This document shows, piece by piece, positions 2,577 through 41,440 of a stretch of DNA of 64,000 bases. Both the position numbers and the translations under genes were made by a program. The stretch's first letter is position 1. Each line of letters starts with the position of its first letter. Origin of the DNA: a virus. The notes beneath the pieces are model-generated. The model saw nothing but the letters and a program-made list of their open reading frames with translations, was not told where the DNA came from and made no database searches. The DNA lies in IMG/VR virus record IMGVR_UViG_3300022700_000179, positions 32,001 to 96,000 of that record; one strand, written 5' to 3'.

Positions 2577-3425
2577 CTATTTCGCTTTATTATATACATG
2601 ACCTTTATACATTATCTTGTCAGGTAAAGTTTTACTACTGGCGGTTGTATCTTTGCTGTTTACACTGTTGGCGACTTCGTCGAACACTTTTTTTGCGTCT
2701 TCTAGTGAGAAGTCTTCTCCTCGTGGTGAGCCGCAAGCTTTGGGGTGGCCTGCAAAGTGGATGCCCGCGACATTATTATTACCAAATTGGTAGTCATTTG
2801 ATGGGGCACAATAAATGGAGATGCTCTTAAAATGTTTTCTGTATACGACTACACAAGCGTAGCCGTCGTCATACGGTCTGCTGGGGTCGAAGCTGTCCTC
2901 TTTCCCTACTGCCCAAAGTCCTACCTTACCTTCTTTACTTACCAAATTGTTCTTCAGTGTTTGCTCTGCTTGTCTAGTGGCCTCTTTTCCTACCTTTATG
3001 TAGTTGGCCACAGGAATGCGGAGCATCTTTTTGATTTTGTCGGTGACTTCCTGGGGCTCTTTTTCCGTTCTTGGGAACCCTATGTCTTTAGCTATACTGT
3101 TAACACCAACCATAAAGGAATATGAGTCGTTCATTCGGTTTTCTACTACGGAGCTACCATTGACGTCCACCTTCTCAATTAGGTCGTAGTCGAGTTCGGG
3201 CATGGGTAATCCGGACATTCTGAATAACCCTAATAGTGTGTCTGCGTCGACATGTGTGATCTCTACGATGTCATTTGGTCCCAGCCTGGGTATTTCTGTG
3301 TTGTTGGACGGTGCTGGGTAACTGGAGTATTCTCCATGATGGTCGAAGTGCTTTACATTATCCGCCAATCCCGCTTCGATGGAGTAGTTTTTACCTGTTG
3401 CCTTGGGGACTAAAAATACTCGCAT
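2577..3425 (-). CDS. DHH-like phosphoesterase with a C-terminal tag motif
   Basis: FDHHG, THVDADT and FAGHPKACGSPRG motifs; SD GGAGG; ends PDKIMYKGHVYNKAK. Confidence 0.6.
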   Translation of the reverse strand: MRVFLVPKATGKNYSIEAGLADNVKHFDHHGEYSSYPAPSNNTEIPRLGPNDIVEITHVDADTLLGLFRMSGLPMPELDYDLIEKVDVNGSSVVENRMNDSYSFMVGVNSIAKDIGFPRTEKEPQEVTDKIKKMLRIPVANYIKVGKEATRQAEQTLKNNLVSKEGKVGLWAVGKEDSFDPSRPYDDGYACVVVYRKHFKSISIYCAPSNDYQFGNNNVAGIHFAGHPKACGSPRGEDFSLEDAKKVFDEVANSVNSKDTTASSKTLPDKIMYKGHVYNKAK

Positions 3426-3574
3426 TTGCGCCTCCTTGCTATGCTTTTACGTTTACAGTATTTGGATACGAGAACGTAACTACTTTGTGCTAGACATTTC
3501 GGGGCTATACAAGTTACTTTATTGTGTATTTTGAGCACCTTTTGGTGAACAACTGCTAAGGTGAGGCTAGCGCT

Positions 3575-4174
3575 ATGCGTCGTGTGCCCAGCTATGTCCT
3601 GTATGAAGGTTCGACTTACCAATTGGTTGTACCTAAACTTTTGCGATTTAAGGGTGCGGTATACCAGCTCGTTGAAGCTGTCATGCCAGCAAAGGCTGCC
3701 GAAGTCAAAGTAAGACAACTGCAGCGTGCGGTAGCGCGCCCGCCTACGGCAAAAATGGTGAACTCTTCTGACTGGGTTCCGGGTGAAGGTGGGATCTTGT
3801 CTTCTGTAAGCACTAAAGACGATGGACTGCCTATGTTAGTCATGTGGAATCCTATTACATCGGAAATGATGATGTCATCAGACAAAAACCTGTCTATTAT
3901 AACGCATAGTGATCTTTTTAAAAAAATGCGCCCGCAGCTCAAGGATTATCCCTTTTCACATATCCGAGATTGGGTGCGTGCTTCAGTAGATCAAAGTAAG
4001 AAGGAGGTAGCTCTCTGGCCTTGGCAGCCGCTTTTGGAGCACGTGATGTACCTGCAATCTCCAGAAGATCTTCGACAGATGGAGTCGATTCACGCACGTG
4101 GTAATCCCGTATTTGAGCAGTTGATACAGGAATTAGGTTCTGGGAACTATTCTTTCAGAACTTACAAAGTATAA
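3575..4174 (+). CDS. hypothetical protein with two N-terminal tag motifs
   Basis: PSYVLYEGSTYQLV and PKLLRFKGAVYQLV; SD GAGG. Confidence 0.75.
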   Translation: MRRVPSYVLYEGSTYQLVVPKLLRFKGAVYQLVEAVMPAKAAEVKVRQLQRAVARPPTAKMVNSSDWVPGEGGILSSVSTKDDGLPMLVMWNPITSEMMMSSDKNLSIITHSDLFKKMRPQLKDYPFSHIRDWVRASVDQSKKEVALWPWQPLLEHVMYLQSPEDLRQMESIHARGNPVFEQLIQELGSGNYSFRTYKV

Positions 4175-22967: not shown

Positions 22968-23194
22968 TGGAAGTCTTGTCCAATTCACCACCAAAAAAGT
23001 TAGTATATAAAGGGCGTACTTACGTTCTTGCTAAGACACGAGAAGACTTAATGTGGGAACAGGTAGAGAGACTTTTGTCTCAAATGTTAAACACGGTCAA
23101 GTCGGATCGTCCTTCGATTAGCAAAAAGAGCGGAGTCGCCGGTACATATCAAGAGCTTAAGGTCTTCCTCAAAGATCTAGGCGTCACGCTCTAG
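22967..23194 (+). CDS. small protein with tag motif
   Basis: TAATG coupling; PKKLVYKGRTYVLA. Confidence 0.7.
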   Translation: MEVLSNSPPKKLVYKGRTYVLAKTREDLMWEQVERLLSQMLNTVKSDRPSISKKSGVAGTYQELKVFLKDLGVTL

Positions 23195-23218: not shown

Positions 23219-23268
23219 GCGACATTATCTGAATTACCAGACTGGTGTGTTGTATACCTGCAACATCA
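23219..23268 (+). promoter_or_regulatory. two GCRACATYA motifs in the scaffold-gene leader
   Basis: GCGACATTA at 23219; GCAACATCA at 23260 abutting SD GGAGG. Confidence 0.55.
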
Positions 23269-23277
23269 GGAGGTCTC

Positions 23278-25587
23278 ATGGCAACAGAGGGTAAAACGAG
23301 AGATGGACCGTCAATGACTCCAGAGGAGAAATACGCCTCTGAGTTGCTTGATACGGCGGCAAAGAAAAAGAATAAAAAACCCAAAAAGAAAAAGAAGACT
23401 GACCACGAAACCAACGTCCAGAAGTTTTTGCGTGACTTCTTCGAATTAGGGAAACCTAAGAAGAAGACCAAGAAAACTAGTCCCGGACTACCTGGTTTGT
23501 ATTGGAGAGGGGTCGAAGATTCACCCTTCTCTTATCAACCCGGTGGTGATGGTGGAGGGGATGGTGGGGGCGGTGGAAATGGTGGGTCGGCTGCGAGTGT
23601 TGCCGAGACCGAGGAGGAATTGATGCGCCAGCTCCGAAAGAAGATGGATCTAAAGGGCAAAAAGGCGGGTGGAGAGAACCCCTATGTTGGTTGGGATAAT
23701 CTTCCTAAGGGATGGACCAAAGAGTCCGTAGAGAAGTTCTGGGGTTCCCTGACTGGTGATCATGAGCACAAGTTCACAGAGTGCAGGAAGAAAATGGAAG
23801 GGAACGTAGACGATCCCGATGCTTTCTGTGCGTCGTTAAAGGATATGATGAAGGGTACTGAAGAGTGGCGGGGTAAAGGCAAAGGCGCTGCTAGTACCTC
23901 TTCACGACCGTATAGTGCTGATTCACTCGATGAAATGGGCTTCGATCCTGGACGTGCTCAAAACGAGTTCCGCCAAGAAACTGGACCGGTAGAAGAAGCC
24001 ATCCAAATCGAAGAAACCCCACCTACTGAAGTCGATCCCGAAGAAGTTGAGCCCGTTGACATGGAGGACGTATCTGCGAATCCTCCCCAAAGGGCAGATA
24101 TGGCATCAGGAGAAGAGACACAGAACGTGCCCGACGGGCCAGAAGCAATGGAGGATCCGCAGATGCAAATCCACAAGGGAACCGAAGAAATTTTTGAAGT
24201 AGATCCAAGTATGGTTGAGGAGCTAAACGTAGCCGTTGACCTGGAAGTTGGCGAGGACGATGAGGATGATTACGCGTCGCCTGTCCCGAGTGAAGGGGAT
24301 GAGATGGAAGCCGTAGAGGACGAGGAGGATGACCTGCTCGGTGACGAAGAAATTCCAGAGGTAAGCGACGAGGAAGTCGAGTACGAGCTGGAGATGGAGG
24401 CTCCTGAGGAAGATTTGGGCGAGATGGAGGAGGAAGATGAGCTGGAGGAGGCGTGCGGATCGAGAGGGGATCGCGCGAAGCTGTATAATTCTGAGCAGCC
24501 TGTCCTTGTAAAGGAAGATGATGTTGAAGTTGTTGATGAGGGACGTGGACACGCCGGTGCAACCCCTGATTCCCCGCCGACTACCTTAGAGCCCGAAGAT
24601 GCGGAGGCTCCTACACTCCCACAAAGCGACATCAAGGTACCTGCGATCGATCCTGCGGAAAAAGAGAGCACTGACGTGGTGTATGAGGTCGTAGTGCCTG
24701 CGTCGTCTTTAACGGACGAGTCGATCGATCGTATCGAGTTGGCACGCTACGGCGAGAACTCAGACGATCCAATGTATATCGTCCTCTTGGACGGCGATCC
24801 CGTTGCTAAGATTGCACTTTCAGACCAAAACCTCCCCGATGAGCACCGAGAGACCTTCCTCGATGACAACTATCCCAACTTTGTCCTTGAGGGCATGGAG
24901 CAGTTTGGTGTCCAGGCGACTTTGAAGACGGTTAACGCCCGTTTCTACGCGGCCCGTGCAAATGAGGGTGAAGTAGCCGAGTCGGTTAAGGCCCGTGTCG
25001 CCTCTGAGATGCACGAGGCGCGGCAGGTAGAGATCGGTCGGTTGAAAGACGATCTGCTGAATGTGGCCTCGGTAGTTCTGCAGGGAACTATGAAAAATTA
25101 CCTGTTGGACAACCCCCTGCGTGATGCACTGATCTCACGGTTCCATCGTGCCGGTGTGGATCCCAGTGCTGCGGTTGACGAAATTGACGATGCCTTCCGT
25201 TCAGCTGGCCAGGATTTCTTCAACACAGTTCTTGAAACAGCTGACGAGTGGCTCGGCCTCCCCAAGGAAGCCCTTGAGCACCATGTCCAGAAAATTCAGG
25301 AAATGTCGCATAGACATCCTGGATACGACATGGTTCAGGGTTACAACGAGGACGACATCCCCGAAGCAGTCGAGCCCACCCCGGAACCTCGTCAGTATGC
25401 TGCACAGGCGGCTGCACCTGCCCCAAGTGTGCCCAAGAACGTTCCCTTGCGCAGCGCGGCCCCACGAGCACCCTCCGGTGGTGGATTCAAGCAGGATAAA
25501 GAGTATTGGAAGCGTCAGCTGAACCTCAGCGGTCGTGTAGCGAACGCTTCTTTGGCTCAGTATCAGCTCCGTAACCCCAAACAGTAG
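23278..25587 (+). CDS. putative prohead scaffold/core protein (very acidic)
   Basis: SD GGAGG; long Asp/Glu-rich region and helical C-terminus; between portal and protease. Confidence 0.6.
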   Translation: MATEGKTRDGPSMTPEEKYASELLDTAAKKKNKKPKKKKKTDHETNVQKFLRDFFELGKPKKKTKKTSPGLPGLYWRGVEDSPFSYQPGGDGGGDGGGGGNGGSAASVAETEEELMRQLRKKMDLKGKKAGGENPYVGWDNLPKGWTKESVEKFWGSLTGDHEHKFTECRKKMEGNVDDPDAFCASLKDMMKGTEEWRGKGKGAASTSSRPYSADSLDEMGFDPGRAQNEFRQETGPVEEAIQIEETPPTEVDPEEVEPVDMEDVSANPPQRADMASGEETQNVPDGPEAMEDPQMQIHKGTEEIFEVDPSMVEELNVAVDLEVGEDDEDDYASPVPSEGDEMEAVEDEEDDLLGDEEIPEVSDEEVEYELEMEAPEEDLGEMEEEDELEEACGSRGDRAKLYNSEQPVLVKEDDVEVVDEGRGHAGATPDSPPTTLEPEDAEAPTLPQSDIKVPAIDPAEKESTDVVYEVVVPASSLTDESIDRIELARYGENSDDPMYIVLLDGDPVAKIALSDQNLPDEHRETFLDDNYPNFVLEGMEQFGVQATLKTVNARFYAARANEGEVAESVKARVASEMHEARQVEIGRLKDDLLNVASVVLQGTMKNYLLDNPLRDALISRFHRAGVDPSAAVDEIDDAFRSAGQDFFNTVLETADEWLGLPKEALEHHVQKIQEMSHRHPGYDMVQGYNEDDIPEAVEPTPEPRQYAAQAAAPAPSVPKNVPLRSAAPRAPSGGGFKQDKEYWKRQLNLSGRVANASLAQYQLRNPKQ

Positions 25588-25679: not shown

Positions 25680-26510
25680 ATGTTGACTCTTCCCAATATA
25701 TATACAAGCTCTCACAGAATAGTTTCTAGCGGTCGCGGGATACATGTTGGTGACACTTTCTTTTCCCAAACACAGAATGGGGACATATATTACGATGAGC
25801 CTAATTTTATAGAGGGCCATCGGCTAGAAACGCTTCGCGCAAACGGCGGTTCTAGCATACGTATAGCTGGAACAGAACTAGGCAAAGTATCACAAAACTG
25901 TGCTTGCGGTTTTTTGGACGTGTCATGGTTACCTTTGGCCGCGAAAGCGTACAAGATAAGTCCCGATATTAAAGATTATGTCTTGGTAGACATCCCAATT
26001 GTACTGGCGAACGTACCTAATAGAAACGGCGACTGCTTTACTTACAAAGAACTCACTACCTTCCGTCCAATTATTGGCATGCCGGCGTTCAAGACGTTCT
26101 ATGGCAAGCCCGCACACCAGGATCACGATAATATGGATCCGACGCGTGCAAAGGGGGTTATTTTCGATGCAACACTTACCCCCTTCCGCGGCGTTTGGCA
26201 TGTAAAAATACTAAAAGGCTTCGACCGTACCAAGGATCCGCGTCTTGCAAAACTGGTTCGCCAGAAATCACGCATTGGCCATTCAATGGGTGCGTTGGTT
26301 GAGCGGACTGAATGCGGGTTACCATGGTGTAACTTCCATTCAGATGGGCGTATAACTTGTGACCATATTAATGGAGGTCAGGGTAAGGGGGATATTATTA
26401 AGGGACATCTAGTCTATGAGAACATGATGGACTACTATTTTGTGGAATGTAGTTCAGTAGAAGATCCAGCATATCCGATCGCTCTTTCTCGAGAAATATG
26501 GGGAGTGTAA
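25680..26510 (+). CDS. prohead (capsid maturation) protease
   Basis: PNRNGDCF, GKPAHQDH, KGVIFDA, HSMGA and ECSSVEDPA, a His/Ser herpes-HK97-type protease pattern. Confidence 0.8.
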   Translation: MLTLPNIYTSSHRIVSSGRGIHVGDTFFSQTQNGDIYYDEPNFIEGHRLETLRANGGSSIRIAGTELGKVSQNCACGFLDVSWLPLAAKAYKISPDIKDYVLVDIPIVLANVPNRNGDCFTYKELTTFRPIIGMPAFKTFYGKPAHQDHDNMDPTRAKGVIFDATLTPFRGVWHVKILKGFDRTKDPRLAKLVRQKSRIGHSMGALVERTECGLPWCNFHSDGRITCDHINGGQGKGDIIKGHLVYENMMDYYFVECSSVEDPAYPIALSREIWGV

Positions 26511-26514
26511 CGAA

Positions 26515-27402
26515 ATGAATCCTCCGTCCCAGATAAAGTATAAGGGCACCATTTACAAGCTTAGATCTGCAGGGGATGTTCAGGTCTCTCCGGGCAGTCC
26601 AGTGGGACCGGAGGGGGTATTATTGATTGAACGTCAATACCCTACGGAATCTCGGGCATTGTATATCGACAACGATGGTGATTTCTTTGCCAAAATAAAG
26701 CTCAATTGGCACAAGAGTAATGTGTTTGACGAGTTAACATTTGATCTTTCTCCGGCAGGAGCGAAAGAGTTTTTTGATAGCCTCAAAACAGAAAGTGACG
26801 GTAAGCTGAGCGCTAAGATACCGGACGAGCAAGTTAGGCAATTGTGGGGGCCAGCTGTGCCAAAAACGCCGGAGGGTGTGGATCCCAAAAAAGTCATAGA
26901 TGTAAGTGGGCACTACATAAAGGTATCTGATCTTCCGGCTGACATAAAGCGGGAAGCTGCATACACATTTGAGGGTCTTCTTCGGGAAGAATTGGCAAGT
27001 ATAAGTAAAATAGAAGGTCGATTCTGCTCCGATCCTTTTAGCGTAATGGGCTTGCGCTACAATGTTCCAGAACATGTAGTTCAGCTGTTTGCAGAGACGC
27101 TTACAAACGCTATGAACGAGTATTTAAGAGAGCAATTCAACACACAGGCTACGGTAGACATAAATGTAGCGGACTCCTGTGGTCCTGTAGACGGGCATGG
27201 GGGTATATACGTATTCGGTAATGGTAGAGAGGAACTTAATAACTTACGTGTACATTTAGAGGGGAACGTTTTGTTACCTGTATGGCGGGAAGTGTGGAAT
27301 AGGTATCAGCAGGGAGAGATACCTGTTGGAGAAAAGCAAAGAGCGTTGGCTTCTTTCAAAGTCAAAGTACTAGCTGCAGTTCGTCCGGAGAACGGTCAGT
27401 AG
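26515..27402 (+). CDS. hypothetical protein with N-terminal tag motif
   Basis: PSQIKYKGTIYKL. Confidence 0.75.
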   Translation: MNPPSQIKYKGTIYKLRSAGDVQVSPGSPVGPEGVLLIERQYPTESRALYIDNDGDFFAKIKLNWHKSNVFDELTFDLSPAGAKEFFDSLKTESDGKLSAKIPDEQVRQLWGPAVPKTPEGVDPKKVIDVSGHYIKVSDLPADIKREAAYTFEGLLREELASISKIEGRFCSDPFSVMGLRYNVPEHVVQLFAETLTNAMNEYLREQFNTQATVDINVADSCGPVDGHGGIYVFGNGREELNNLRVHLEGNVLLPVWREVWNRYQQGEIPVGEKQRALASFKVKVLAAVRPENGQ

Positions 27403-28174: not shown

Positions 28175-28648
28175 ATGCCCAAGATTCCAGAGGAGATACA
28201 GTATAAAGGGTGCCGCTACGTATTAGCTGGGCGTAAACGTGGGCGCAAATCTGCTACTATTAAGGACAGTGGCTACCGACACGATGGCATCTTGTTTTAC
28301 ATAAATGTTCTCTGCCGAAGTAAGACAGGGAACGACTTGCCGTCTAGATTTGCAACTAGAGTAAATACAATCCCGGAAGGTATCTCACTTAATGAGCAGG
28401 AAACCGTAGCTGCGAAAAAAGCCATTGGAGATAGTGGCAAAAAGAAAGACAGCAATCTGTGGCACATACTAGTACGAGATGAGGGTTGGTTTTGGGCGGA
28501 TGATCCTAAGAGTGTACAAAACGCTGTACCGATCCAGCAGACGTTGGATCTCGTTGAAAAGTATCGCGAGTGGGACCGCCCAGGAACCAATCCTTTAATC
28601 TATGCGGAGATCGTCACAAAAGTTGTTGGCGGCCGTAAAAGGGATTAG
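28175..28648 (+). CDS. hypothetical protein with N-terminal tag motif
   Basis: PEEIQYKGCRYVLA; SD AGGAGG. Confidence 0.75.
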   Translation: MPKIPEEIQYKGCRYVLAGRKRGRKSATIKDSGYRHDGILFYINVLCRSKTGNDLPSRFATRVNTIPEGISLNEQETVAAKKAIGDSGKKKDSNLWHILVRDEGWFWADDPKSVQNAVPIQQTLDLVEKYREWDRPGTNPLIYAEIVTKVVGGRKRD

Positions 28649-28651: not shown

Positions 28652-29707
28652 GTGTTAGTAGTCTCCTCTGACAATTTCTCTGACTACGTCAAGGAATACG
28701 ATCGCCGTGTTCTTGAGGGAATCAGTAAGAAAAATGAGGGAGAATATGGTGGTATAGACTTGATTGTTGAGGATTGGGGTGGGTCTCCCACTTTCCCAGG
28801 TATCGCACTCCTCATTAAAAGATTCGACTTGAATCTGCCTAGTACGGTAGAGGAACTGCAAGAAGATTTTGATGATGTGGCCGATCTGATTAGCTCGTTA
28901 GAGTTTAAGGTAATGAATAAAGTAGTTCGGCCTATTAACAATCTCAGTGAGGTAACAAGGGTAGGGGGCGTTTACTCCGTTGGATGGGATGGAAGAAAAC
29001 TAGCTCTTATGTTCAATGCCGGCCCATCTGAGGTAGAAGATCTAATGTCGGTGAAGGATAGGATAAACGTTGCTACTACACAGCAAGAAAATGCTGAGCT
29101 GCTCCGATGTGTACGTTCAGCGGTAGACCACATTAAGTCCGCGGACCTCGGCAGAGCTTCAGAGGTAGATGCTCAGCACCTCAATGAGGCAATAGACATA
29201 CTCGAAATATGTGGACTTTCAGACAAAACTAAGGACGTACGGTTGGCGCTCAAGAGTTTTGACAGCAACATAGAATCCGCTAGAGAGTATATTTATGGCC
29301 CTACTGGCCATGGCACAAACCGTGGCGCCCTGTACGATTTAATCACTTTCGCTGAGTCCCTCGAGAAAAATGTTGAGTCCGGACCGTTAGAGCAAGGTAA
29401 TTCCAGGAGTCTTCTAATGCACCCGATTTCGCCTTACATCGTCTATCAAGGTTCGGTATACAAGAAGGTAGCTTACGACCTCCCTAAGGATATGAAAGGC
29501 GTAGAAAAATGTAAGCCCGAGGATTTTGATCCTAAGCGTGATCCTGCCGACCAAGAATGGTGTACGTACAGTTACGACGGTAAACTGCGCGGTCGTTTTA
29601 GAAAGAAGAAGGACGCGTTACAGCACAAAGTATTTTTGATTAACATGTATTGGCAGAAGGGAAAGGGCAAGAATAAACCTAAGGGTAAATATTGGCGTAA
29701 GAAGTAG
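28652..29707 (+). CDS. modular protein with tag motif and a KC...WCxY...G domain
   Basis: SPYIVYQGSVYKKVA; KCKPEDFDPKRDPADQEWCTYSYDGKLRGR. Confidence 0.75.
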   Translation: MLVVSSDNFSDYVKEYDRRVLEGISKKNEGEYGGIDLIVEDWGGSPTFPGIALLIKRFDLNLPSTVEELQEDFDDVADLISSLEFKVMNKVVRPINNLSEVTRVGGVYSVGWDGRKLALMFNAGPSEVEDLMSVKDRINVATTQQENAELLRCVRSAVDHIKSADLGRASEVDAQHLNEAIDILEICGLSDKTKDVRLALKSFDSNIESAREYIYGPTGHGTNRGALYDLITFAESLEKNVESGPLEQGNSRSLLMHPISPYIVYQGSVYKKVAYDLPKDMKGVEKCKPEDFDPKRDPADQEWCTYSYDGKLRGRFRKKKDALQHKVFLINMYWQKGKGKNKPKGKYWRKK

Positions 29708-30805: not shown

Positions 30806-31951
30806 ATGAAGACTTTCTCACGGAAACCATCTCTTCGGGATCGGCAGGGAAACGATATCGCCCATGGTAAGGCCTTCAAGGCTAACCCCCGTACGGGTAG
30901 TATGTCGTTTTCTGACAGCACGCCGCTGGTCGGATCCAATGGAGAGTACAATGCAGGTAGTGACCGTCAGCTGGCCGAGGTTGTTGACGGTATCGTAAAA
31001 TTGGCTCGTCGTGGTGAGATTCACTACGAGGCGGGCACTGAAACCACTGCACAGGATGTGTCAGCCTGGAATCAGGAAGGCCATCTCGTGCAGGCAGCCC
31101 TGGCAGAGCGCGTGCCTTCGCAGGAAGGTCCGTTCCAGGTGCTTGGTGAAGTTTTCACCGACTCCGTTTCTGAAACCATGGGCCGCATGGGCTTCACCAA
31201 CAAGGTGGTAGCCCAGCAGGACGTGGCTGAGGGTGGAACGGCACGTGTGCGCATCCGCCAGAAGGATGTCACTTCCTGGCTGATGCTGACCGACGGTCAC
31301 ACCGTTGAGTCCCTCATCCGTCAGAAGTACATCTATCCACGTGGCTACAACATCGAAACCCTCGTTATGATGGGTGAGGATGAGATCCACGAGGCTGGTG
31401 CACAGATCATCGAGGAAAAGTACAACGATGCGTTGGAAGCCACGATGGTCCGTGACGACAACATTACTAAGTTCCTGCTGGACCAGGCGGCAGACACACA
31501 GAATGACGTGATTGCTTTTAACGCATTCACTCCGAATGTGTTTGTTACCCTGCGTAACCAGATCTGGCAGTGGAGCCTCCCCGTCCCGCATTGCCTTATG
31601 GCTATCGACTTGTGGGACGACTTGTTCGCTGACCAGGACTGGGCACGTTGGTATTCGCCAATCGAGAAGCACGAACTGGCAGTCGAGGGTAAACTCGGTC
31701 GGCTTGCTGACATCGAGATTATTACCGACGGCTTCCGTTATGACACCTTGCAGGTCCTCGACCCTGGCGAGGTTTACTTCTTGAGTTCTCCAGCAACTCT
31801 GGGTGTGAAGGCCAACATGATCGCGCTGAATAGCACGGTTGTTGACCAGCGCATGCTCGGACGCGCTGCTCGCGGGTGGTTCATCTTCCTGCGGCAGGCA
31901 ACCATCATCGGTAACGCTAATGGCGTTTCCAAGGGTATCCGTCTCTCCTAG
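30806..31951 (+). CDS. major capsid protein (HK97 fold inferred)
   Basis: 381 aa, SD AAGGAG, after protease and decoration genes, EGKLGRLADIEIITD P-domain-like pattern, strong terminator downstream. Confidence 0.8.
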   Translation: MKTFSRKPSLRDRQGNDIAHGKAFKANPRTGSMSFSDSTPLVGSNGEYNAGSDRQLAEVVDGIVKLARRGEIHYEAGTETTAQDVSAWNQEGHLVQAALAERVPSQEGPFQVLGEVFTDSVSETMGRMGFTNKVVAQQDVAEGGTARVRIRQKDVTSWLMLTDGHTVESLIRQKYIYPRGYNIETLVMMGEDEIHEAGAQIIEEKYNDALEATMVRDDNITKFLLDQAADTQNDVIAFNAFTPNVFVTLRNQIWQWSLPVPHCLMAIDLWDDLFADQDWARWYSPIEKHELAVEGKLGRLADIEIITDGFRYDTLQVLDPGEVYFLSSPATLGVKANMIALNSTVVDQRMLGRAARGWFIFLRQATIIGNANGVSKGIRLS

Positions 31952-32993: not shown

Positions 32994-34259
32994 ATGCGAC
33001 TTTGGCTGGACGACGACCCCAATCGTGCCGTACCTTCAGGGGTCGACGTAATAGTACGTACGGCCGACGAAGCAATAAAGTGGATTGCTTCTGGTCAGAT
33101 AACAGCAGTTTCTCTGGATCACGATTTGGGTAAATCTTCTGCTAGCTCTCCTGTAGATCCTGGCACCGGTTATGACGTAGCTCGGTGGATTGAGGAAAAA
33201 GCGTACACAGGTGAGTTGCCTCGTATTCAATGGTCAGTGCATAGCGCAAACCCAGTTGGTGCCAAGAGAATGGAGGACGCGCTGAACAACGCAAACCATT
33301 TTTGGTCCCAACACGAAGATACAGTAAAAGAAGCTGACGGCCGCAATATCTATGAACTTGTTCGTACTATGCCGCCTACCGAGGACGGTGTGATGATCGA
33401 TACTCTCAATTTGGCAGGACAAGAGGATGCCATGTTTTCCAAAGATGACGCGTTAAAAGCCGCTGAAGAGCTAGAGATTGACTGGGATGCTGTAGATTTT
33501 ACACCAGAAGCTCTCATGAAAGGAATGAACGTAGAGTTGGAGCATGGCACTCGGTATGACGACGCTAACGTGACCGACGACGAGATGCTGCCTACGGCAA
33601 AAATTGCTTTGGCACATTTGTACGAGTTTGCTGACTACTACGAAAGACTAGAGCGTATGGAGCAGGAGGCTATGAAAGAAACTAGTATTTTACCTGCACA
33701 TGTAAAATATAAGGGAGCTGACTACTATTTAGCAGGTAAAGGTCGCATGCCTAAGGAAATGCGGCAGGGATGGGAGTCCGGTGACTGGGCTGAGTTTACC
33801 ATTCCGGAGACAGGCGAGCATGGGATGGGAAGGATCATTTGGTTTGTGAAGTATGGTGATAAGGGCGCGGCGGTAATTCCAGTCAAGGCGATAAAAGACG
33901 ATAGAGGCGAATGGTGGCCTGTTCCGGGACAGCAGGAGTATCTGCTACAATTAGAAGATTTGAAGCGAATTGATTATCCCGGTGAGCTATTACAGAATAT
34001 CAAACCTAAGTTCAAGGAACTATCCCAAGATACAGCCGACATTGCAGGGGACCAACCTACTCTGTTTCTCCATAGAGATCCGGCGACAAAGCACCACTAC
34101 GTGGAGCATCCTAGTATTCCTACCGCATCTTCTCTGCCTAGAGTCATTACTTTCGGGGGTGCCAAATACGAACGCTACGTAGAATTTCCAAAATACATAC
34201 ATTTTAATGGTACCAAGTACGTCCTAGCAGGTTGCCAAGGTGAACGAGGAGCGATGTAA
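32994..34259 (+). CDS. multidomain protein: cyclic-phosphate-processing receiver-like domain, DUF5661-like domain and three tag motifs
   Basis: LWLDD...SLDHDLG...TGYDVARWI...VHSANPVGAKRM; GMNVELEH...KIALAHLYEFADYYERL. Confidence 0.75.
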   Translation: MRLWLDDDPNRAVPSGVDVIVRTADEAIKWIASGQITAVSLDHDLGKSSASSPVDPGTGYDVARWIEEKAYTGELPRIQWSVHSANPVGAKRMEDALNNANHFWSQHEDTVKEADGRNIYELVRTMPPTEDGVMIDTLNLAGQEDAMFSKDDALKAAEELEIDWDAVDFTPEALMKGMNVELEHGTRYDDANVTDDEMLPTAKIALAHLYEFADYYERLERMEQEAMKETSILPAHVKYKGADYYLAGKGRMPKEMRQGWESGDWAEFTIPETGEHGMGRIIWFVKYGDKGAAVIPVKAIKDDRGEWWPVPGQQEYLLQLEDLKRIDYPGELLQNIKPKFKELSQDTADIAGDQPTLFLHRDPATKHHYVEHPSIPTASSLPRVITFGGAKYERYVEFPKYIHFNGTKYVLAGCQGERGAM

Positions 34260-34984
34260 TGCCTAGTCAGCGTATAATGTACAAAGGTCAAGTTTACAGA
34301 CTGGCTGATACCAGTAACATTAACGTAGAGCAGAAAATTCAAGAAGTTATTCCTATAGTTAAAAAGTATATGCAGTCTGCGGGTATTGGAACTGGGGAGC
34401 CTGAATTTGACGATTATGATGCTATGGCTATGGCAGACATACTTGTTCATGCTATTTTGCACGCTGAGCTGTTCAACGAGGGACCGTACGAACATAAAGG
34501 ATTCATCGAATGGCGTGAGCAGAACTATCCAAAGTCGAAGGTGGGGGCCGGGGTTTACGACGTTGTAATGTATATGGGTATGAATGCTCCTGGGCTCCTA
34601 GACAAAGCTGTGGACGTATTGAAAGGACCCACAAAGTTTGATGAGGAATCTGCGGCTCCAGATCAAATTAGTTACAAAGGTGCAGTATACAAGCAAGCTG
34701 TGCAAGGACAGGAACTGAACCCGAGACAGCTAGCGGACAAAATTATTATCCAAGCAGAGAACACGCAAAAAGAACTGAACGAAAAGTTAGCAGTTGCTAA
34801 ACAGTCACTAGAGAATGCTGTTTCTAGCGAGGAAAGCGAGACTGCAACCGAACGACTAAGCAACATCTTGAAGGAAGCAGAGTCTGCTTACAACCAAGTT
34901 TGGCGGCTGCTGTACGCAATGGAAAACTTTGCTACTACAAAGACAACTAACACTGAGGAAAAGAAAGAAGACGAAGAAGAGTAA
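34259..34984 (+). CDS. modular protein with two tag motifs
   Basis: QRIMYKGQVYRLA and PDQISYKGAVYKQA. Confidence 0.8.
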   Translation: MPSQRIMYKGQVYRLADTSNINVEQKIQEVIPIVKKYMQSAGIGTGEPEFDDYDAMAMADILVHAILHAELFNEGPYEHKGFIEWREQNYPKSKVGAGVYDVVMYMGMNAPGLLDKAVDVLKGPTKFDEESAAPDQISYKGAVYKQAVQGQELNPRQLADKIIIQAENTQKELNEKLAVAKQSLENAVSSEESETATERLSNILKEAESAYNQVWRLLYAMENFATTKTTNTEEKKEDEEE

Positions 34985-37239
34985 TGTCTGTCTTCTCTCT
35001 GGACAATAAATCCTTTTCCGAGTGGCTGGAATCCAATCCAGATTATGATTATGTGCTAGAGTCTCTTCGCAAAGGGGTAGAAGAATTCTATAAAGAGTTT
35101 GTGAACGAGGGTAAGTACTCGGATTGGGTGTTTAATACCGATAACGGTATCAAGTCGACAGTCGGTGATGAATCCCGCCGTCTTTACGACGAATCGAAAG
35201 AAATTATCTATTCTGCGGATCCAAACCAACTACCTAAATTAGCTGGAAACGTGGAGGAAGCCCTCAACTACCTAAAAGATTCTATTGATGGTCGTAACTA
35301 CATGCATGGCGTTCCAGCTCGTCTGAAAAGACTTCGACACAGGATTCATGAAATTGTGGACAGGTTTTCACAACCTACAAAGGTGCAAGCAATGCCTTAC
35401 GACCAGGAGTTAGGTCCTGAGTACCGATACGAAATTGAGATGACTGGACCGGAGATGGCTCTGTTATCTACTTGGACTTCTGGTATGGGACCTCTATACG
35501 CTTTGGTTAGTCGTTTATACCGTGACCAAGGTCGTGCAACAGCGTCTGAACGTGAGCTAGATGAAGTATTGGATGCGGCAGGAATGACTATATCCGATGC
35601 GGTAGAGGGCATTACAGAAGATGATAAAGTTGTGGCCCGAGGGATCATCAAGAAACTGAGTAAGGTACTCGATGTTCCTGAGAACGAGTTGCTAGAGATC
35701 TCTGCCGCAGCCGACTCACCTATCGAATACTACAGGCAGGTTTTTGTAAACACGTTCGACGATTTATATAAGAACCTTTTTGGTCCATATGCTACGTATT
35801 TGGTGGAAGACACGGGTACGCTAGAATCGGCGGCCCGTCGAGTAAGATACAGGCTGGGGGATCTACGCGAAAATCCTTCAAACAAGCTAGTTGATCAGTT
35901 AGAGAGGGATTTAACTTCTTTCTATAACGCTTTGGATGCAGGGTTTGCAGCTTCTGGCGATAAACTCAGCTACAAACACCGTGGTTATAGGGAAGTTTTT
36001 CGCAGAATACTAGAAACCATACGAAGGATATTAGGAACAAAAGAGTATGCTGAAGGGGAAGAGCCAGAGCCGCCCCTGCGCTATCCCAACAGACCACCAT
36101 TTCGTGATATGGGACCTTTTAATAGAAAATCCAGCCGCAGTGAAAAGGGAGAGACAAAGATGGAATTACCCAAGGAAATCAAATATAACGGGTTGAAGTA
36201 TGTACGTGCTGAGAATCCTGCACGTCCAGAGAAGAGTGCTCTTGATGAGGGGAAGATTCGTAAAGAGCTGGAATCGCAGTTTGGAGGCAATGTCCCCGCG
36301 CAGGAGTATAAATACCTCGACACCGTCAGCGGACCGAGCGGTAACCAATCAGACGCAGTAACGGACACTAAAGAAATGAACAAACGCCGTGAGGATGCCC
36401 TTAAAGGGAAGGGCTCAAACGACCAATCTGACCTGAACTCCAATACACCAAACAAGATCAAGTATGCGGGTTTGGTGTACGTGAAGGCAGAACCAGAAAA
36501 GCAATCTGCAGCTACAACTTTACCTCCGCGAATTAAATACGCAGGTCGTGAGTATGTACGAGTTGGGTACGAGGATGCCGGTGAGTACAAATCGGATGAC
36601 ATGACGACTTGGAAGCCGGGTGAGGAAAAGGGCAAAAGTAAAAAGCTTGATGACTATTTTAGTCCCAGCGATTCCGGCAAAGCCGACTATTCTGAAAGGA
36701 TGCCCAACAGCGAAGTGGATTTCGATAAAGCATCCGAAGGTATCGATCCGGCTTCCAGTGAACCCGGTCCAGAAAAGGGCGGCGGCGAGAACATGCCTAA
36801 CGAGGAGCAGTCAAAAGAGACGGCCAAGGGTATGCCACGCCTAGACGGTGATGAGGACCGCATACCGACCGCAGCGAGTTCTCAGCCGCAGAGCATCAAC
36901 TACGCTGGACATCGCTACGTTAAGGTAAGCGAGGCAGAGGCACGTAGAATTCTGGCAGCCAAGAAGAAGGAAAAGAAAACGGATCTGCCCAAAGGTTGGT
37001 CTAATAAATCTGCTAAAAAATTCTACGAAGATGCAGGTGCTACTGTTACCAAATGTGCCCGTGAAGTGAAAAAGCTCAAAAAGGAGGGTGACAAGAAATG
37101 CAAGGATGTTGATGATCCTAAGGCGTTTTGTACTACCCTGGAGGGGCTTTACGATGAAGATGGCGACGAAAAATCCAAGAGCACGAAGTCTAAAGGCAAG
37201 AAAGATAACGGGTCCAAAGACAAAAAATCCAAAAAGTAG
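34984..37239 (+). CDS. large modular protein with four tag motifs; probably continues to 38095 across a frameshift
   Basis: PKEIKYNGLKYVRA, PNKIKYAGLVYVKA, PPRIKYAGREYVRV and PQSINYAGHRYVKV. Confidence 0.8.
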   Translation: MSVFSLDNKSFSEWLESNPDYDYVLESLRKGVEEFYKEFVNEGKYSDWVFNTDNGIKSTVGDESRRLYDESKEIIYSADPNQLPKLAGNVEEALNYLKDSIDGRNYMHGVPARLKRLRHRIHEIVDRFSQPTKVQAMPYDQELGPEYRYEIEMTGPEMALLSTWTSGMGPLYALVSRLYRDQGRATASERELDEVLDAAGMTISDAVEGITEDDKVVARGIIKKLSKVLDVPENELLEISAAADSPIEYYRQVFVNTFDDLYKNLFGPYATYLVEDTGTLESAARRVRYRLGDLRENPSNKLVDQLERDLTSFYNALDAGFAASGDKLSYKHRGYREVFRRILETIRRILGTKEYAEGEEPEPPLRYPNRPPFRDMGPFNRKSSRSEKGETKMELPKEIKYNGLKYVRAENPARPEKSALDEGKIRKELESQFGGNVPAQEYKYLDTVSGPSGNQSDAVTDTKEMNKRREDALKGKGSNDQSDLNSNTPNKIKYAGLVYVKAEPEKQSAATTLPPRIKYAGREYVRVGYEDAGEYKSDDMTTWKPGEEKGKSKKLDDYFSPSDSGKADYSERMPNSEVDFDKASEGIDPASSEPGPEKGGGENMPNEEQSKETAKGMPRLDGDEDRIPTAASSQPQSINYAGHRYVKVSEAEARRILAAKKKEKKTDLPKGWSNKSAKKFYEDAGATVTKCAREVKKLKKEGDKKCKDVDDPKAFCTTLEGLYDEDGDEKSKSTKSKGKKDNGSKDKKSKK

Positions 37240-38439: not shown

Positions 38440-38720
38440 GCAGTCCAACAAAGATAATTTATAGGGGTGCTACTTACGTTCTCGCCGACGCCGCGTTAGA
38501 AAAATTCTCCGAGAAGGCCCGTGTGGTTATACCAAAGCTGTTTGAACTTTGGGTAGGTGACGAATCTAATTTCAAGAACCTGAAAGCTGTTTTCGGCGGT
38601 CAACCAGCAGACATTATAACAGATCGGCTCCGTGACAAGTTCAGCACAGATCTGGCAGACATTGCTACATTGATTGTGGACTTTGGTCCTGCAGCAGAAA
38701 GACTCTCGAGCGATGACTAA
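38436..38720 (+). CDS. small protein with tag motif
   Basis: PTKIIYRGATYVLA. Confidence 0.75.
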   Translation: MSSPTKIIYRGATYVLADAALEKFSEKARVVIPKLFELWVGDESNFKNLKAVFGGQPADIITDRLRDKFSTDLADIATLIVDFGPAAERLSSDD

Positions 38721-40101
38721 TCACGAAGCTGGAAACGATGTAGATGTTGCTGCGGATGGTGTTATGCCTTTGTTGGAGGTCGGGCAACAGGTAGAGACTC
38801 CTTTAGGCCACGGCCGTATTAGTGATATTAGTCTTGTGGCTTCAGACTATGGGACCCAGGTTGAGATGGAGCCTAAGATTATGGTTGATCTCGACGATCC
38901 TGAGGAAGGTATTCCTAATACTATACAAGTTTGTATGTGTAAGCTTGGACTTGGCGACGAGAAAAAAGAAGCTATAATTCGAAAAGAATTCAGTAGGCTT
39001 TGGCCACCGATCACGGATGAGATACCCCAAGATTCCAGAATGATCGTAGATGTCCAAAACGAATTTGCGGAGACATCCAACATGACTACTCCCAGAGACA
39101 CCGAAATTAAACAGTTTCATAAATTGTATCTAGGTGCCCTACAGTCAGATTCGCTGGACCCTTCAATTCTCCGGGATATCCAGTTAGTTGCTTACAAAAA
39201 ATATGTTGATCTTTCTAGAGGATCTAAGAAAATAAGGGGCCGTATCGGGGATAGCGAAGAAGGCATGGTGGTCGATGTAGGGGCAGACGGCGGCAATGAA
39301 TCTGCGGTCATCTTAAAAAAGAAGAAGGGCGACGAGGGGTTTACTCGCCTACTACTTTTCCTACCCGACAGCGATTCGCTAAAATGGGTCGCAGTTCCCG
39401 AGGACGTAGAGTTTGATGGATATGATGGCAGGGATGATCTGGGGGTAGAGCCACACGTCTACGATGACATGCGTTTAAACAGTCCTGAGTTGCATACGAT
39501 CCGTAGACTTCCGGAAACCTATCTACCGCATGACCCGAATTACCCTTCCAGCATAACCACTACATTATGGAGGCCAACGATTCGTATGACACCGATCCGC
39601 TATTATAACACCCGTGAGGGGGCACTGGAAGTTAAACCTGAACATGCTCCCGAAAATGAAGAAAACTTGGAAGCAAACCAACAGGATTTGGTTAACTATC
39701 CTACTCCGGACTTTGTGCCACATGAGCATCACATGGCGCCATATGAGTCGGGGCAGCCAGTGTATGAGTATAGGGAAGACAAACGTCATCCGCATGCGCC
39801 AGAATTTATAGAACCCACAGACGAATTGGTGCAATCCGCGGCCGATTTCTGGAGAGAGTACACGTTGGCACGTCAACGTTACAATCCGGCTTTTGGTTCC
39901 CACTTGAACAAAGACGTACACCAGTTTGTAAAGGATTTTATGTCTCTGAAGGACATGTCCAGAGATGACGCTTTGGATTTACTCCGTTACATGGTGCAAG
40001 TAGGGTATTTTCCTCCAAGTGTATACGATTCAACTGTAGACACCTTCGCAGCAGATGACGTTGGTATGACCACTCGGACGCACTACACCAACGATGCGTA
40101 G
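38713..40101 (+). CDS. hypothetical acidic protein
   Basis: ATG at 38713 overlapping the previous gene. Confidence 0.75.
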   Translation: MTNHEAGNDVDVAADGVMPLLEVGQQVETPLGHGRISDISLVASDYGTQVEMEPKIMVDLDDPEEGIPNTIQVCMCKLGLGDEKKEAIIRKEFSRLWPPITDEIPQDSRMIVDVQNEFAETSNMTTPRDTEIKQFHKLYLGALQSDSLDPSILRDIQLVAYKKYVDLSRGSKKIRGRIGDSEEGMVVDVGADGGNESAVILKKKKGDEGFTRLLLFLPDSDSLKWVAVPEDVEFDGYDGRDDLGVEPHVYDDMRLNSPELHTIRRLPETYLPHDPNYPSSITTTLWRPTIRMTPIRYYNTREGALEVKPEHAPENEENLEANQQDLVNYPTPDFVPHEHHMAPYESGQPVYEYREDKRHPHAPEFIEPTDELVQSAADFWREYTLARQRYNPAFGSHLNKDVHQFVKDFMSLKDMSRDDALDLLRYMVQVGYFPPSVYDSTVDTFAADDVGMTTRTHYTNDA

Positions 40102-41440
40102 TCCCACACCGACCATAATAGAATTCCGTGGTGCATTTTATTGTATTGCGGATTCTGATGATGAGTTCGTTCAAGAGGTCGTCCTTAAGAAACTAAAGGA
40201 AAAGGGGCTGGACCTGCCTGAAGAGATCCTTAGGGGTCCAGAAGAAACCGGCGAGCAGTATATCCCTGAGCTTACACCAAAAGATATAGAAGAAACAACG
40301 GAAGAAGTCACTGCGGTAACCCAAGCTGCCAGAGCACATGCTGAAGGCCTACTTCAAACGAATGGCATAGATTACGACCCAGATATTATCTACTCTGTCA
40401 ATTTTCCTGAACTTTCCGAGGATAGGGGTTTTGTGGTTGAAGGTGAAGAGGGAGTGGAGGTAAGGTTCAAAGTTAACAAGGGTAATCTGTCACATTTTGA
40501 TGGCAGCGCTTGTATTTTTGATTACCGCTTTCCAGAGAGTATCTGGAGTCAGGTAAGGGATCGACTTCTAGGTCGAGGACGGATCACGCCCGGTGGACAT
40601 GAGCTGGTCGAATTTATTTTCCAGTTTTGCAATCATAACTTTGGTGTGTCCGCGCAAAAGGGTGCGTTGTTCGACGAACTGATTGCAGCCATTGGTTTTG
40701 TACAAGATCCGTCAAAAGTAAAAACTGATGCTTCTCGAAGACTGGAGCCGGTAGGCGGTACCCTTGAGGAGAGGCAAGAGCAAGTACTTGACTGGCTGAA
40801 AGAAATTATTCAAGAGGAAAACCAGCGCGGTAAAGGTGAGAGAACCAATTGGAATAATGAGGGTAGTGTACTAAGTACACTTAAATTTTATAGAGGCGAA
40901 AAGTTTATAAGCAAAGAACAGTATGACGAGATACTGAATTGGTTGGACACCGATTTTAGATCAATAATGGATGCCGCTGTAGCCAGGGCTCAGGGTAGTG
41001 GTGGTGGAGCGGCGGAGTCTGGTGGAGGACTAGTTAAGACCGTCGAAGAGTATGTCAAAGATCTAGCTGGTCAAGCTGGATACAATGGTCCAATACATTC
41101 GTACATTGATAAGAATACTGGTTTAATTGCATCTCAAATCGAAGCCCCCTACCGATTTGTGTACTTCCTTGAGAGGCAGGCCGGCGGAAACGTCAAGCTG
41201 GTTAGGGCATCAATGCGTTTTTGTGACTATGACTACAGCGTAGATGACCCAGCTGACGCAGTAGAGCTACTAAAGCACGATGTCACTTTCGGAATGGCGT
41301 ATAAAAATGCAGTGAATCCCAAAAAGTCTAAGCGTTACAGGAAGAAGTCCTTCGAGGATCACGTCCGGGACTACGTTTCGCAACAGGCCAAGCAGATGCA
41401 AGAGCAAGCCGGCGGCGAAGTCGAGGAGCCCATAGTGTAG
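40094..41440 (+). CDS. hypothetical protein with N-terminal tag motif
   Basis: PTIIEFRGAFYCIA. Confidence 0.75.
   Translation: MRSPTPTIIEFRGAFYCIADSDDEFVQEVVLKKLKEKGLDLPEEILRGPEETGEQYIPELTPKDIEETTEEVTAVTQAARAHAEGLLQTNGIDYDPDIIYSVNFPELSEDRGFVVEGEEGVEVRFKVNKGNLSHFDGSACIFDYRFPESIWSQVRDRLLGRGRITPGGHELVEFIFQFCNHNFGVSAQKGALFDELIAAIGFVQDPSKVKTDASRRLEPVGGTLEERQEQVLDWLKEIIQEENQRGKGERTNWNNEGSVLSTLKFYRGEKFISKEQYDEILNWLDTDFRSIMDAAVARAQGSGGGAAESGGGLVKTVEEYVKDLAGQAGYNGPIHSYIDKNTGLIASQIEAPYRFVYFLERQAGGNVKLVRASMRFCDYDYSVDDPADAVELLKHDVTFGMAYKNAVNPKKSKRYRKKSFEDHVRDYVSQQAKQMQEQAGGEVEEPIV

Follow-up and report, generated by a model that had tools for sequence, protein, structure and literature searches.

A capsid targeting sequence (CTS) was reportedly described by Mullaney and Black in 1996 for the internal proteins IPI-III and Alt of phage T4. 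The sorting of dozens of head proteins in giant phages is, to our knowledge, largely unexplained, and only the 10-residue leader of T4 has been worked out. This CTS is an N-terminal leader of 10 residues, which ends in a gp21 site and is removed (PMC9026906). In phiKZ and SPN3US dozens of head proteins are packed, some of them with protease-removed propeptides thought to act in targeting (PMC10052503, PMC5694885), and 42 head proteins of SPN3US are uncleaved and carry no known targeting signal (PMC10052503). A common 14-residue label is not described in this literature on giant-phage and T4 heads (PMC10052503, PMC5694885, PMC9026906).

Here we describe a tag peptide that is a clade-specific, previously undescribed address or docking label of an uncultured giant phage. 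The consensus P-x-x-I-x-Y-K-G-x-x-Y-x-L-A characterizes the tag, which is 14-20 residues long and present on about two dozen otherwise unrelated proteins, the genes for most of which lie among the head-assembly genes. The window, i.e. the whole stretch of 64,000 nt analysed here, is part of a 105.7-kb contig representing about 30% of a ~350-kb jumbo phage. The setting is of the T4 CTS type, with a prohead protease of the gp21/assemblin fold and acidic scaffold-like genes.

Occurrence of the tag in the window

Six-frame translation of the window disclosed 11 matches to the strict pattern P..I.[YF].G..Y..A, every one in the frame of a long ORF, 10 of them on the + strand and one on the - strand (2583-2624). 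Shuffled controls gave none (mean 0.0, maximum 0 in 300 residue shuffles and 100 nucleotide shuffles), and a looser pattern was matched 14 times against 0.09-0.16 expected. Copies were then called with an iterated HMM, in which clear copies scored at least 15.7 bits and the next best score was 7.8. The window contains 22 clear and 3 degenerate copies (G codons of the latter at 3608, 29450, and 34158), a total of 25 that are spread over 16 ORFs and invariably read in the coding frame. Scanning of the contig and of relatives, as had been proposed, yielded 29 clear copies on 23 proteins of the contig and located the tag in close relatives as well.

The claim of the original prediction, that the tag recurs on unrelated ORFs, is upheld by these counts, and its tally of 24 copies in 15 ORFs was reproduced for every ORF. 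It fell short by one copy, at 5-46, in a gene that begins before the window. Its ORF coordinates need small corrections; those starting at 22967 and 28175 are corrected to 22943-23194 and 28172-28648, and position 37229 has no start codon, the ORF being open in frame from 37088, with ATG at 37154 and 37160. The reported absence of the tag between 43.8 and 64 kb was confirmed by the HMM, which found none onward in the same strand block to the contig end either.

Tag copies in the window are the following:

5..46 (+), tag PRRLLYRGAIYKRA, N-terminal in a 120-aa gene beginning 14 nt before the window; HMM 17.4 bits
2583..2624 (-), tag at the C-terminus of ORF 2577-3425(-), 282 aa, a single residue short of the stop, with DTTASSKTL ahead; 20.7 bits
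3587..3628 (+), degenerate tag PSYVLYEGSTYQLV in ORF 3575-4174, the leading member of two tags in tandem; 6.8 bits
3632..3673 (+), tag in ORF 3575-4174, in tandem with the preceding entry; 18.8 bits
4209..4250 (+), tag, N-terminus of topoisomerase IB (ORF 4191-5705); in the complete relative G001 an orthologue of 43% identity is tagged too
22991..23032 (+), tag in the 83-aa ORF 22943-23194, between the portal and a scaffold-like gene; retained in orthologues
26524..26565 (+), tag, N-terminus of ORF 26515-27402, immediately 3' of the prohead protease; retained in 5 orthologues
28187..28228 (+), tag, N-terminus of ORF 28172-28648
29429..29470 (+), degenerate tag SPYIVYQGSVYKKV in ORF 28652-29707; 7.8 bits
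32113..32154 (+), tag, N-terminus of the 60-aa ORF 32098-32280; 31.6 bits
32335..32376 (+), tag in ORF 32323-32982, the leading member of two tags in tandem; 25.9 bits
32389..32430 (+), tag in ORF 32323-32982, in tandem with the preceding entry; 30.5 bits
33693..33734 (+), tag in ORF 32994-34259 (cREC_REC and DUF5661), between DUF5661 and a further domain; modelled hairpin E236-239/E242-246
34137..34178 (+), degenerate tag in ORF 32994-34259, with IPTASSL ahead; modelled hairpin; 7.0 bits
34188..34229 (+), tag close to the C-terminus of ORF 32994-34259; modelled hairpin
34265..34306 (+), tag, N-terminus of ORF 34259-34984; 20.6 bits
34658..34699 (+), tag, internal in ORF 34259-34984, with EESAA ahead
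36169..36210 (+), tag 1 of 4 in ORF 34984-37239 (751 aa), low-complexity C-terminal half
36448..36489 (+), tag 2 of 4, ORF 34984-37239
36523..36564 (+), tag 3 of 4, ORF 34984-37239, with KQSAATTL ahead; 15.7 bits
36886..36927 (+), tag 4 of 4, ORF 34984-37239, with IPTAASSQ ahead; 17.2 bits
37418..37459 (+), tag 1 in the ORF open in frame from 37088 (ATG 37154) to 38095; 25.0 bits
37802..37843 (+), tag 2 in the ORF open in frame from 37088 (ATG 37154) to 38095
38445..38486 (+), tag, N-terminus of the 94-aa ORF 38436-38720
40109..40150 (+), tag, N-terminus of ORF 40094-41440

Linkers of the TA/SA type, remarked on earlier, are real in the sense that stretches rich in S, T, and A precede internal copies, 17 of 44 of which have Ser at position -10.

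Selection on the peptide and search for known families

All synonymous codons occur at the conserved tag residues P, I, Y, G, Y, and A, including four for each of Pro, Gly, and Ala and both for Tyr. Because synonymous codons vary at conserved positions, selection acts at the level of the peptide. Nucleotide identity between copies averages 50%, with a maximum of 74% over 42 nt. A dispersed DNA repeat translated by accident was rejected on the basis of this mean identity and of the restriction of copies to coding frames. Between orthologues, the tag shows 54% identity vs 41% in the remainder of the protein.

Pfam matches in 30 tagged or neighbouring proteins leave the tag uncovered, and no PHROGs family covers it. 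A PDB profile search with the tag returned just two carbonic-anhydrase matches (E 0.3-0.4), and an Atlas search nothing usable. A known repeat with another function, which had been named among the findings that would speak against the proposal, was sought in Pfam, PHROGs, and PDB, and no family was found there to cover the tag. With the tag profile, hairpins such as PQTITYNGETYQL were also matched within large repeats of surface proteins from Lactococcus and Streptococcus suis. These MucBP/LPXTG beta-hairpin repeats were discarded as chance look-alikes, their strands being inside repeat domains of 90-140 residues in cell-wall-anchored proteins and not free tags.

Position of the tag and its distribution in relatives

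Among 119 non-redundant copies, 66 are N-terminal (55%), 44 internal, and 9 C-terminal, on carrier proteins without other similarity, in agreement with the prediction of a portable module that unrelated proteins bear at their ends or between their domains. Tags are located exactly at points of gene fusion or fission and of domain shuffling, and pairs in tandem, spaced by 13-25 residues, are frequent. Some orthologues retain the tag, as topoisomerase IB does at 43% identity, and others have gained or lost it. The domain of ORF 28172-28648 makes up the C-terminal half of a longer protein in relatives L002 and L013, where the tag is internal. Orthologues of ORF 28652-29707 carry a clear tag in L001, L007, and L009 and none in the others, while those of ORF 40094-41440 are tagged in L002 and untagged in L008 and L009. 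A sigma-70 (region 2), a kinase-like AAA_33, and an HTH domain were each found on one of 94 tagged metagenomic proteins. The phage also encodes Ro60, a NYN domain protein, and a CCA-adding enzyme, all without the tag.

All relatives with 75-92% identity in the major capsid protein (MCP) carry the tag, and it was found neither in five cultured jumbo relatives nor in 67 more distant head loci (930 kb). The tag is restricted to one phage clade. In the complete relative of 349.8 kb, 33 matches are confined to four islands, the head module being the largest.

The tag in the head module

Further features of the head module are listed below:

19747..22086 (+), portal protein carrying an additional C-terminal domain and a Gly-rich tether
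23245..25587 (+), scaffold-like protein, untagged, 780 aa, very acidic; candidate partner of the basic tag
25680..26510 (+), prohead maturation protease, T4 gp21/herpesvirus assemblin fold
30806..31951 (+), MCP
31091..31105 (+), conserved A-A-L-A-E, MCP residues 96-100, a candidate maturation cleavage site

The protease model aligns with T4 gp21 (5jbl_A; Z 10.1, rmsd 2.9 Å over 131 residues), and herpesvirus assemblins rank next. The protein matches PHROG 18299 (head maturation protease), its His149 and Ser202 are invariant across 24 homologues, and acidic scaffold-like genes flank it. For comparison, the MCP of PaBG loses ~20% of its mass on maturation (PMC7412058). Twelve of the 19 genes at 22.9-41.5 kb are tagged, interleaved with the portal, protease, scaffold-like, and MCP genes, while the opposite-strand block has the tag on none of its 57 genes (Fisher test on tagged and untagged genes of the two strand blocks, p = 2e-5). 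This concentration of the tag in the head module, beside a gp21-like prohead protease, supports part of the original reading.

This gene context, together with the analogy to T4, suggests that the tag may be a head-loading label like the CTS, which we consider the best reading and give somewhat less than an even chance. Counting against it, about 11 tagged genes of the contig are outside the head module, on both strands, some of them for enzymes that act in nucleic-acid metabolism, a set that would likewise suit docking at a different site. It nevertheless appears unlikely that the hairpin is a general docking tag unrelated to the capsid, plugging proteins into one non-virion partner such as a replication or transcription factory protein, a clamp-like ring, or a host protein. 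Such a partner would accommodate the eleven outlying genes, the topoisomerase IB and the RNA-repair-type cREC/DUF5661 protein, as well as the sigma-70 region 2, AAA_33, and HTH proteins tagged in metagenomic relatives. However, most copies are on ORFans within the head module, the complete relative limits its tags to four islands of a 350-kb genome, and the untagged 57-gene block encodes thymidylate kinase and a ClpP-like protease.

Predicted hairpin structure and charge

In AlphaFold2 models of ORF 32994, each of the three tags forms a two-strand hairpin that stands alone in a linker and is not packed against the confident domains, with the turn at the invariant Gly of the tag. The earlier idea of a beta-hairpin agrees with these three models and with the alternating sequence pattern, although pLDDT is below 50; as far as models of such low confidence indicate, the tag fits a free beta-hairpin. 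It is improbable that hairpins pair or stack within and between proteins, building one internal body or condensate with no separate receptor. The common tandem pairs do recall stacking beta-hairpin repeats, one protein has four copies on a disordered string, and the sequence pattern predicts a hydrophobic hairpin face (I, Y, Y, L), but most tagged proteins have a single copy and AlphaFold2 does not confidently pack the copies of ORF 32994 together.

Net charge of the tag core averages +2.4, in a phage whose scaffold-like proteins, themselves untagged, are strongly acidic. Tagged proteins are no more basic than untagged ones. Together with two to three conserved aromatics, this charge would suit a nucleic-acid-binding mini-motif, a basic aromatic hairpin that anchors proteins to phage DNA or to an RNA, and several tagged proteins act on nucleic acids. 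We regard this as very improbable, since conservation peaks on the hydrophobic face and the Gly turn, while basic positions vary (K, R, N, T, and others). Moreover, Pfam and PDB profile searches gave no match to a known nucleic-acid-binding family, and Ro60, the NYN domain protein, and the CCA-adding enzyme, which the phage also encodes, carry no copy.

Residues following the tag

Cleavage by the protease at Ala, releasing domains, had been put forward in the original prediction and finds no support as a general feature, as L-A-[DE] is present in only 16 and x-A-E in 14 of the 119 copies. An acidic residue (Asp or Glu) follows the tag Ala in 41% of these copies vs 15% background, and this position (+7) shows no conservation among orthologous tags. 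The acidic bias reaches +10 and may represent a helix cap or an acidic linker. If tags are cleaved at all, the cut would come after Glu or Asp, as in the conserved A-L-A-E of MCP, and in a minority of tags only. The least probable explanation is a pure protease-recognition or polyprotein-processing module, marking prohead-protease cuts in multi-domain precursors and having no targeting role, because tags at domain junctions, the acidic residue after Ala, the MCP motif, and the gp21 fold of the protease are outweighed by the scarcity of cleavage-like strings, the variable +7 residue, the reach of the acidic bias, and terminal copies (1-9 residues from the stop, 2-13 after Met) that would free nothing useful.

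Proposed role and comparison with known systems

If the tag loads proteins into the head, a portable, basic, and amphipathic beta-hairpin of ~14 residues, usually placed after a Ser/Thr/Ala/Pro linker, would act as a common address label. One receptor at the prohead core or the inner capsid surface would bind it in head assembly, the obvious candidates being the capsid protein and the scaffold-like proteins, which are very acidic and untagged. Binding would recruit about two dozen different proteins into the head, among them small ORFan proteins, topoisomerase IB, and the cREC/DUF5661 protein. Tandem or multiple copies could provide avidity, and tagged proteins could leave the head with the DNA at ejection. 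The minority of copies ending in L-A-E or L-A-D may in addition be substrates of the gp21-like protease.

It is possible, if doubtful, that the clade runs a general, encapsulin-like cargo-loading system, in which a single hairpin label and one prohead receptor would pack more than 20 proteins for delivery with the DNA. The label could be at either end, between domains, or in multiple copies, cargo would include topoisomerase IB and the RNA-repair-type phosphoesterase, with a sigma factor added in relatives, and new cargo would be acquired by gaining the label. A short, sequence-defined label on about two dozen proteins offers a directly testable handle on head sorting, and with it the proteins packaged by uncultured phages could be predicted from their sequences alone. 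The label is possibly also a tool for loading foreign proteins into capsids, and cargo repertoires may evolve through shuffling of small modules at tag boundaries.

Like the T4 CTS, the tag is a short portable peptide common to unrelated proteins, mostly N-terminal, and proposed to load varied cargo for ejection. Unlike that leader at the extreme N-terminus, only 66 of 119 tags are N-terminal and up to four copies occur per protein, and the tag is a predicted beta-hairpin of 14 residues, mostly without a cleavage-type site after it. The N-terminal propeptides on head and ejection proteins of phiKZ and SPN3US differ in being long and sharing no short motif. Encapsulin cargo-loading peptides are likewise short terminal peptides on unrelated cargo enzymes and are recognized on the inside of an HK97-fold shell protein; however, they belong to prokaryotic nanocompartments and usually occur as one C-terminal copy, and binding of the tag to MCP is only a candidate interaction. 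Encapsulation peptides of bacterial microcompartments are also short, amphipathic, and lineage-specific, found at ends or between domains of unrelated enzymes with poorly conserved linkers, but they are amphipathic helices on BMC shell or scaffold proteins, whereas the viral tag is predicted to be a hairpin.

Tag copies and their genomic context

The window spans bases 32001-96000 of a 105,713-bp linear viral contig that represents ~30% of a genome according to CheckV. Its major capsid protein (MCP) is 25-30% identical to those of the cultured jumbo phages PaBG, Lu11, BcepSauron, Vibrio GR11A and Erwinia jumbo phages. Close relatives in IMG/VR number 13 (MCP identity 75-92%), including one complete genome of 349,793 bp with terminal repeats, and beyond them the next MCPs are at most 36% identical. 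Megablast of window positions 30-42 kb gave no match among GenBank phages. PHROG profiles place the head module on the + strand of the window, and from 43.8 kb onward genes lie on the - strand.

Genes of the head module
16799-19291, +, large terminase (PHROG profile)
19747-22086, +, portal (PHROG profile)
23245-25587, +, acidic scaffold-like protein of 780 aa (listed in head module)
25680-26510, +, head maturation protease (PHROG profile)
30010-30780, +, structural protein (weak similarity to PaBG gp81, E 1e-4)
30806-31951, +, MCP (PHROG profile)

In the six-frame translation of the window, the strict pattern of the tag (P..I.[YF].G..Y..A) has 11 matches, every one in the frame of a long ORF, and the pattern is absent from 300 residue shuffles and 100 nucleotide shuffles. 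With an HMM built iteratively from the contig and its relatives, 29 copies score at least 15.7 bits in the contig, the next score being 7.8. The window holds 22 clear and three degenerate copies in 16 ORFs. All copy counts per ORF in the original prediction were reproduced, and an extra copy was found at 5-46; three of its ORF coordinates shift slightly, two of them to 22943 and 28172, and the one given as 37229 to a frame starting at 37088/37154. The absence of tags noted for 43.8-64 kb holds for that interval and further along the same strand block. Tagged genes amount to 0 of 57 in the opposite-strand block vs 23 of 102 elsewhere (Fisher p = 2e-5). A ClpP-like protease (51597-52217, -) and a thymidylate kinase (45651-46430, -) lie within this untagged block, where the majority of the remaining genes have no Pfam match.

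Between 22.9 and 41.5 kb, 12 of 19 genes are tagged; they are interleaved with portal, protease, scaffold-like and MCP genes, and fill the 10 kb downstream of MCP. Eleven tagged contig genes are found outside the head module, on both strands, and some tagged proteins are nucleic-acid enzymes, with a sigma factor among those of relatives. For these reasons the tag may dock proteins at some site other than the head. Loading into the head is the best-supported reading on the basis of gene context, and we put it forward tentatively.

No clear common promoter motif emerged from an inspection of the regions upstream of tagged and head genes. By eye, many apparent tRNA genes were noticed in upstream regions at 7.6-19 kb of the contig (loci L020 and L021), a part that precedes the window. 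At contig 10294-11628, next to tagged genes, lies a gene for a CCA-adding enzyme that has an HD domain.

Organization and evolution of tagged proteins

In 82 unique copies the consensus reads [S/T/K/N]-x-[P/A]-P-x-x-[IVL]-[KR]-[YF]-[KRN]-G-x-x-Y-[V]-[LR]-[AV]. Gly and the second Tyr are invariant among the collected copies, partly owing to the method of collection, and the net charge of the core averages +2.4. Of 119 non-redundant copies, 66 lie near the N-terminus, starting 2-13 residues past the initiator Met, 9 lie near the C-terminus, ending 1-9 residues ahead of the stop, and the other 44 are internal. The TA/SA linkers noticed previously are indeed present, as S/T/A-rich stretches (TASS, SAA, TAASS) that precede internal and C-terminal copies. 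Tandem pairs spaced by 13-25 residues are common, and in ORF 34984-37239 four tags are spread along a low-complexity region. The end of this ORF is overlapped by 80-150 nt by an ORF with tags at 37418 and 37802. The segment 37088-37239 is A-rich and Lys-coding, and could represent an unusual overlap, a programmed frameshift fusing both ORFs, or a sequence error.

Copies occur across unrelated downstream domains, which bears out the proposal of one portable module on unrelated proteins; a structural element of a single domain family is rejected on this ground. A dispersed DNA repeat is rejected as well, since the conserved residues (Pro, Ile, Tyr, Gly, Tyr and Ala) are encoded by every synonymous codon and nucleotide identity between copies averages 50%; the tag is thus a peptide module.

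Tag position is usually kept in orthologues (families 22943, 26515, 28172, 32098, 32323, 32994 and 34259), and identity in orthologues is 54% for tags vs 41% for the rest of the protein. The tag of topoisomerase IB (4191-5705; Pfam Topoisom_I, E 8e-15) is N-terminal here and in the complete relative, where it is retained at 43% identity. PaBG has a topoisomerase I gene too, near that of the MCP, yet no tag was found anywhere in its genome.

Tags are also gained and lost among orthologues. ORF 22092 has no tag in this phage and has one in L002 and L013, two loci of relatives, while ORF 40094 is tagged here and in L002 and untagged in the relatives' loci L008 and L009. Furthermore, tags mark points of gene fusion and fission. 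In L013 and L002, a longer protein of 315 aa has the tag inside it, and its C-terminal half is the counterpart of ORF 28172, whose tag is N-terminal. For the contig gene 4265-5656, which precedes the window, similarity to the counterpart in the complete relative is limited to the domain ahead of the tag. In relatives, DUF5661 proteins have between one and three tags, after which come other small modules. Besides three tags, ORF 32994-34259 contains cREC_REC (cyclic-phosphate-processing receiver), DUF5661 and another small beta domain; cREC_REC and DUF5661 are encoded by separate genes in relatives.

Distribution among phages and databases

The tag is present in every close relative, with 79 matches in 14 loci, all on the MCP strand. 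In the complete relative, 33 matches are confined to four islands (174-181, 218-220, 260-263 and 276-293 kb), the last of which is the head module. Whole genomes of PaBG, GR11A, Lu11, BcepSauron and RHEph12 (1.19 Mb) gave 0-1 weak matches, and no match reached 12 bits in 67 head loci (930 kb) from more distant relatives.

An exhaustive profile search through 1.84 billion representative proteins disclosed 101 proteins at E ≤0.001, nearly all of them small, multi-tag, hypothetical and metagenomic. Four long outliers are bacterial surface proteins or similar (e.g. Lactococcus LPXTG, Streptococcus suis MucBP). In these a similar strand pair sits inside a large repeat, so they are considered chance look-alikes, and a known surface-protein repeat is rejected. 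Few Pfam domains occur in the 94 tagged metagenomic proteins: DUF5661 (2), Sigma70_r2 (1), AAA_33 (1) and HTH_28 (1). The sigma-70 region 2 domain belongs to a multi-tag protein (E 3e-15), and the AAA_33 domain is kinase-like.

Apart from proteins of the contig itself, a word-indexed profile search over 5.8 billion proteins recovered just 3-4 close relatives, and a search for related loci in viral and metagenome contigs with one tagged protein found none. A back-translated DNA pattern for I-[KR]-[YF]-K-G-x-x-Y-V-L-A had three matches in IMG/VR, all from one unrelated family (GQTIKFKGLRYVLAY, without Pro and in single copy), which were taken as chance. Pfam, PHROG and PDB have no entry covering the tag, and profile searches of Protein Atlas and PDB with it gave nothing usable. 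The tag is clade-specific and undescribed.

Predicted structure and further shared modules

Hydrophobic and polar residues alternate on either side of the K/N-G turn, a pattern that would place I, Y, Y and L on one face of a hairpin with a two-residue turn. AlphaFold2 modelled all three tags of ORF 32994-34259 as two-strand hairpins with the turn at Gly, in linkers that lie apart from the confidently modelled cREC_REC and DUF5661 domains. Because pLDDT is <50 in these hairpins, the beta-hairpin fold is likely but not established.

Two additional modules were observed. The second one, of ~60 residues (L-P-K-G-W-[TS]-x-K-S-x-x-x-F-[WY]...C...D-D-P-x-A-F-C-x-[ST]-L), is likewise portable, occurs in relatives on DUF5661/tag proteins, was not found in out-group loci and has no Pfam match; it could be a partner of the tag. 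The third is E-K-C-x(2,3)-D-[FL]-D-P...W-C-x-Y-[ST]-x-D-G-x-L-x-G-R...K-x-D-A. Its two copies are 46% identical over 41 residues (E 2e-9), and each adjoins a tag.

Positions of the second and third modules
23677-23886, second module, ORF 23245 (scaffold-like), residues 145-214
36991-37185, second module, ORF 34984 (four-tag protein), residues 670-734
29501-29620, third module, ORF 28652, residues 284-323
37262-37384, third module, ORF from 37154, residues 37-77

Candidate receptors, cleavage and comparison with T4

The basic hairpin suggests one possible pairing, with the very acidic, untagged scaffold-like proteins (23245 and 27416). Isoelectric points do not differ between tagged and untagged proteins, and a signature of basic internal proteins is therefore not seen. 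In the portal (19747-22086), a long Gly-rich tract (GGGEL-like) follows the conserved core and leads to an extra C-terminal domain of ~190 residues, conserved within the clade at 39-56% identity. With an expected orientation towards the inside of the capsid, this domain is a candidate for a receptor on a tether. Co-folding of MCP (47-row alignment) with a 42-residue tag alignment gave ipSAE values of 0.00 and 0.01, which carry no verdict on binding in either direction. Neither the PaBG sheath protein nor PF04984 matched a tail sheath in the complete relative, whose tail module was thus not located.

Protease cleavage at Ala had been proposed to release the domains of tagged proteins. Within the clade, residues 96-100 of the MCP read A-A-L-A-E ([LMF]-[AN]-[ED] in the wider family), and PaBG MCP loses ~20% of its mass on maturation (PMC7412058), making a protease site of the L-A-E type plausible. 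The residue after the tag Ala is Asp/Glu in 41% of copies (background 15%). L-A-[DE] is present in 16 of 119 copies and x-A-E in 14 of 119, the residue after Ala is not conserved between orthologous tags, and the acidic bias runs on to +10. Cleavage at Ala as a general way of release is thus unsupported; cutting after the acidic residue that comes next could affect a subset of tags at most, and this part of the original prediction is weak.

The model of the head maturation protease (core pLDDT >90) has its best match in gp21, the T4 prohead protease (5jbl_A, Z 10.1, rmsd 2.9 Å over 131 residues), followed by herpesvirus assemblins, and its His149 and Ser202 are invariant in 24 homologues. In T4, unrelated internal proteins reach the scaffolding core by means of a 10-residue capsid targeting sequence, which gp21 removes; changing its final Glu to Asp stops cutting and leaves targeting unaffected (PMC9026906). 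By analogy with this targeting sequence and gp21, the likeliest role of the tag would be the docking of cargo onto a prohead component.
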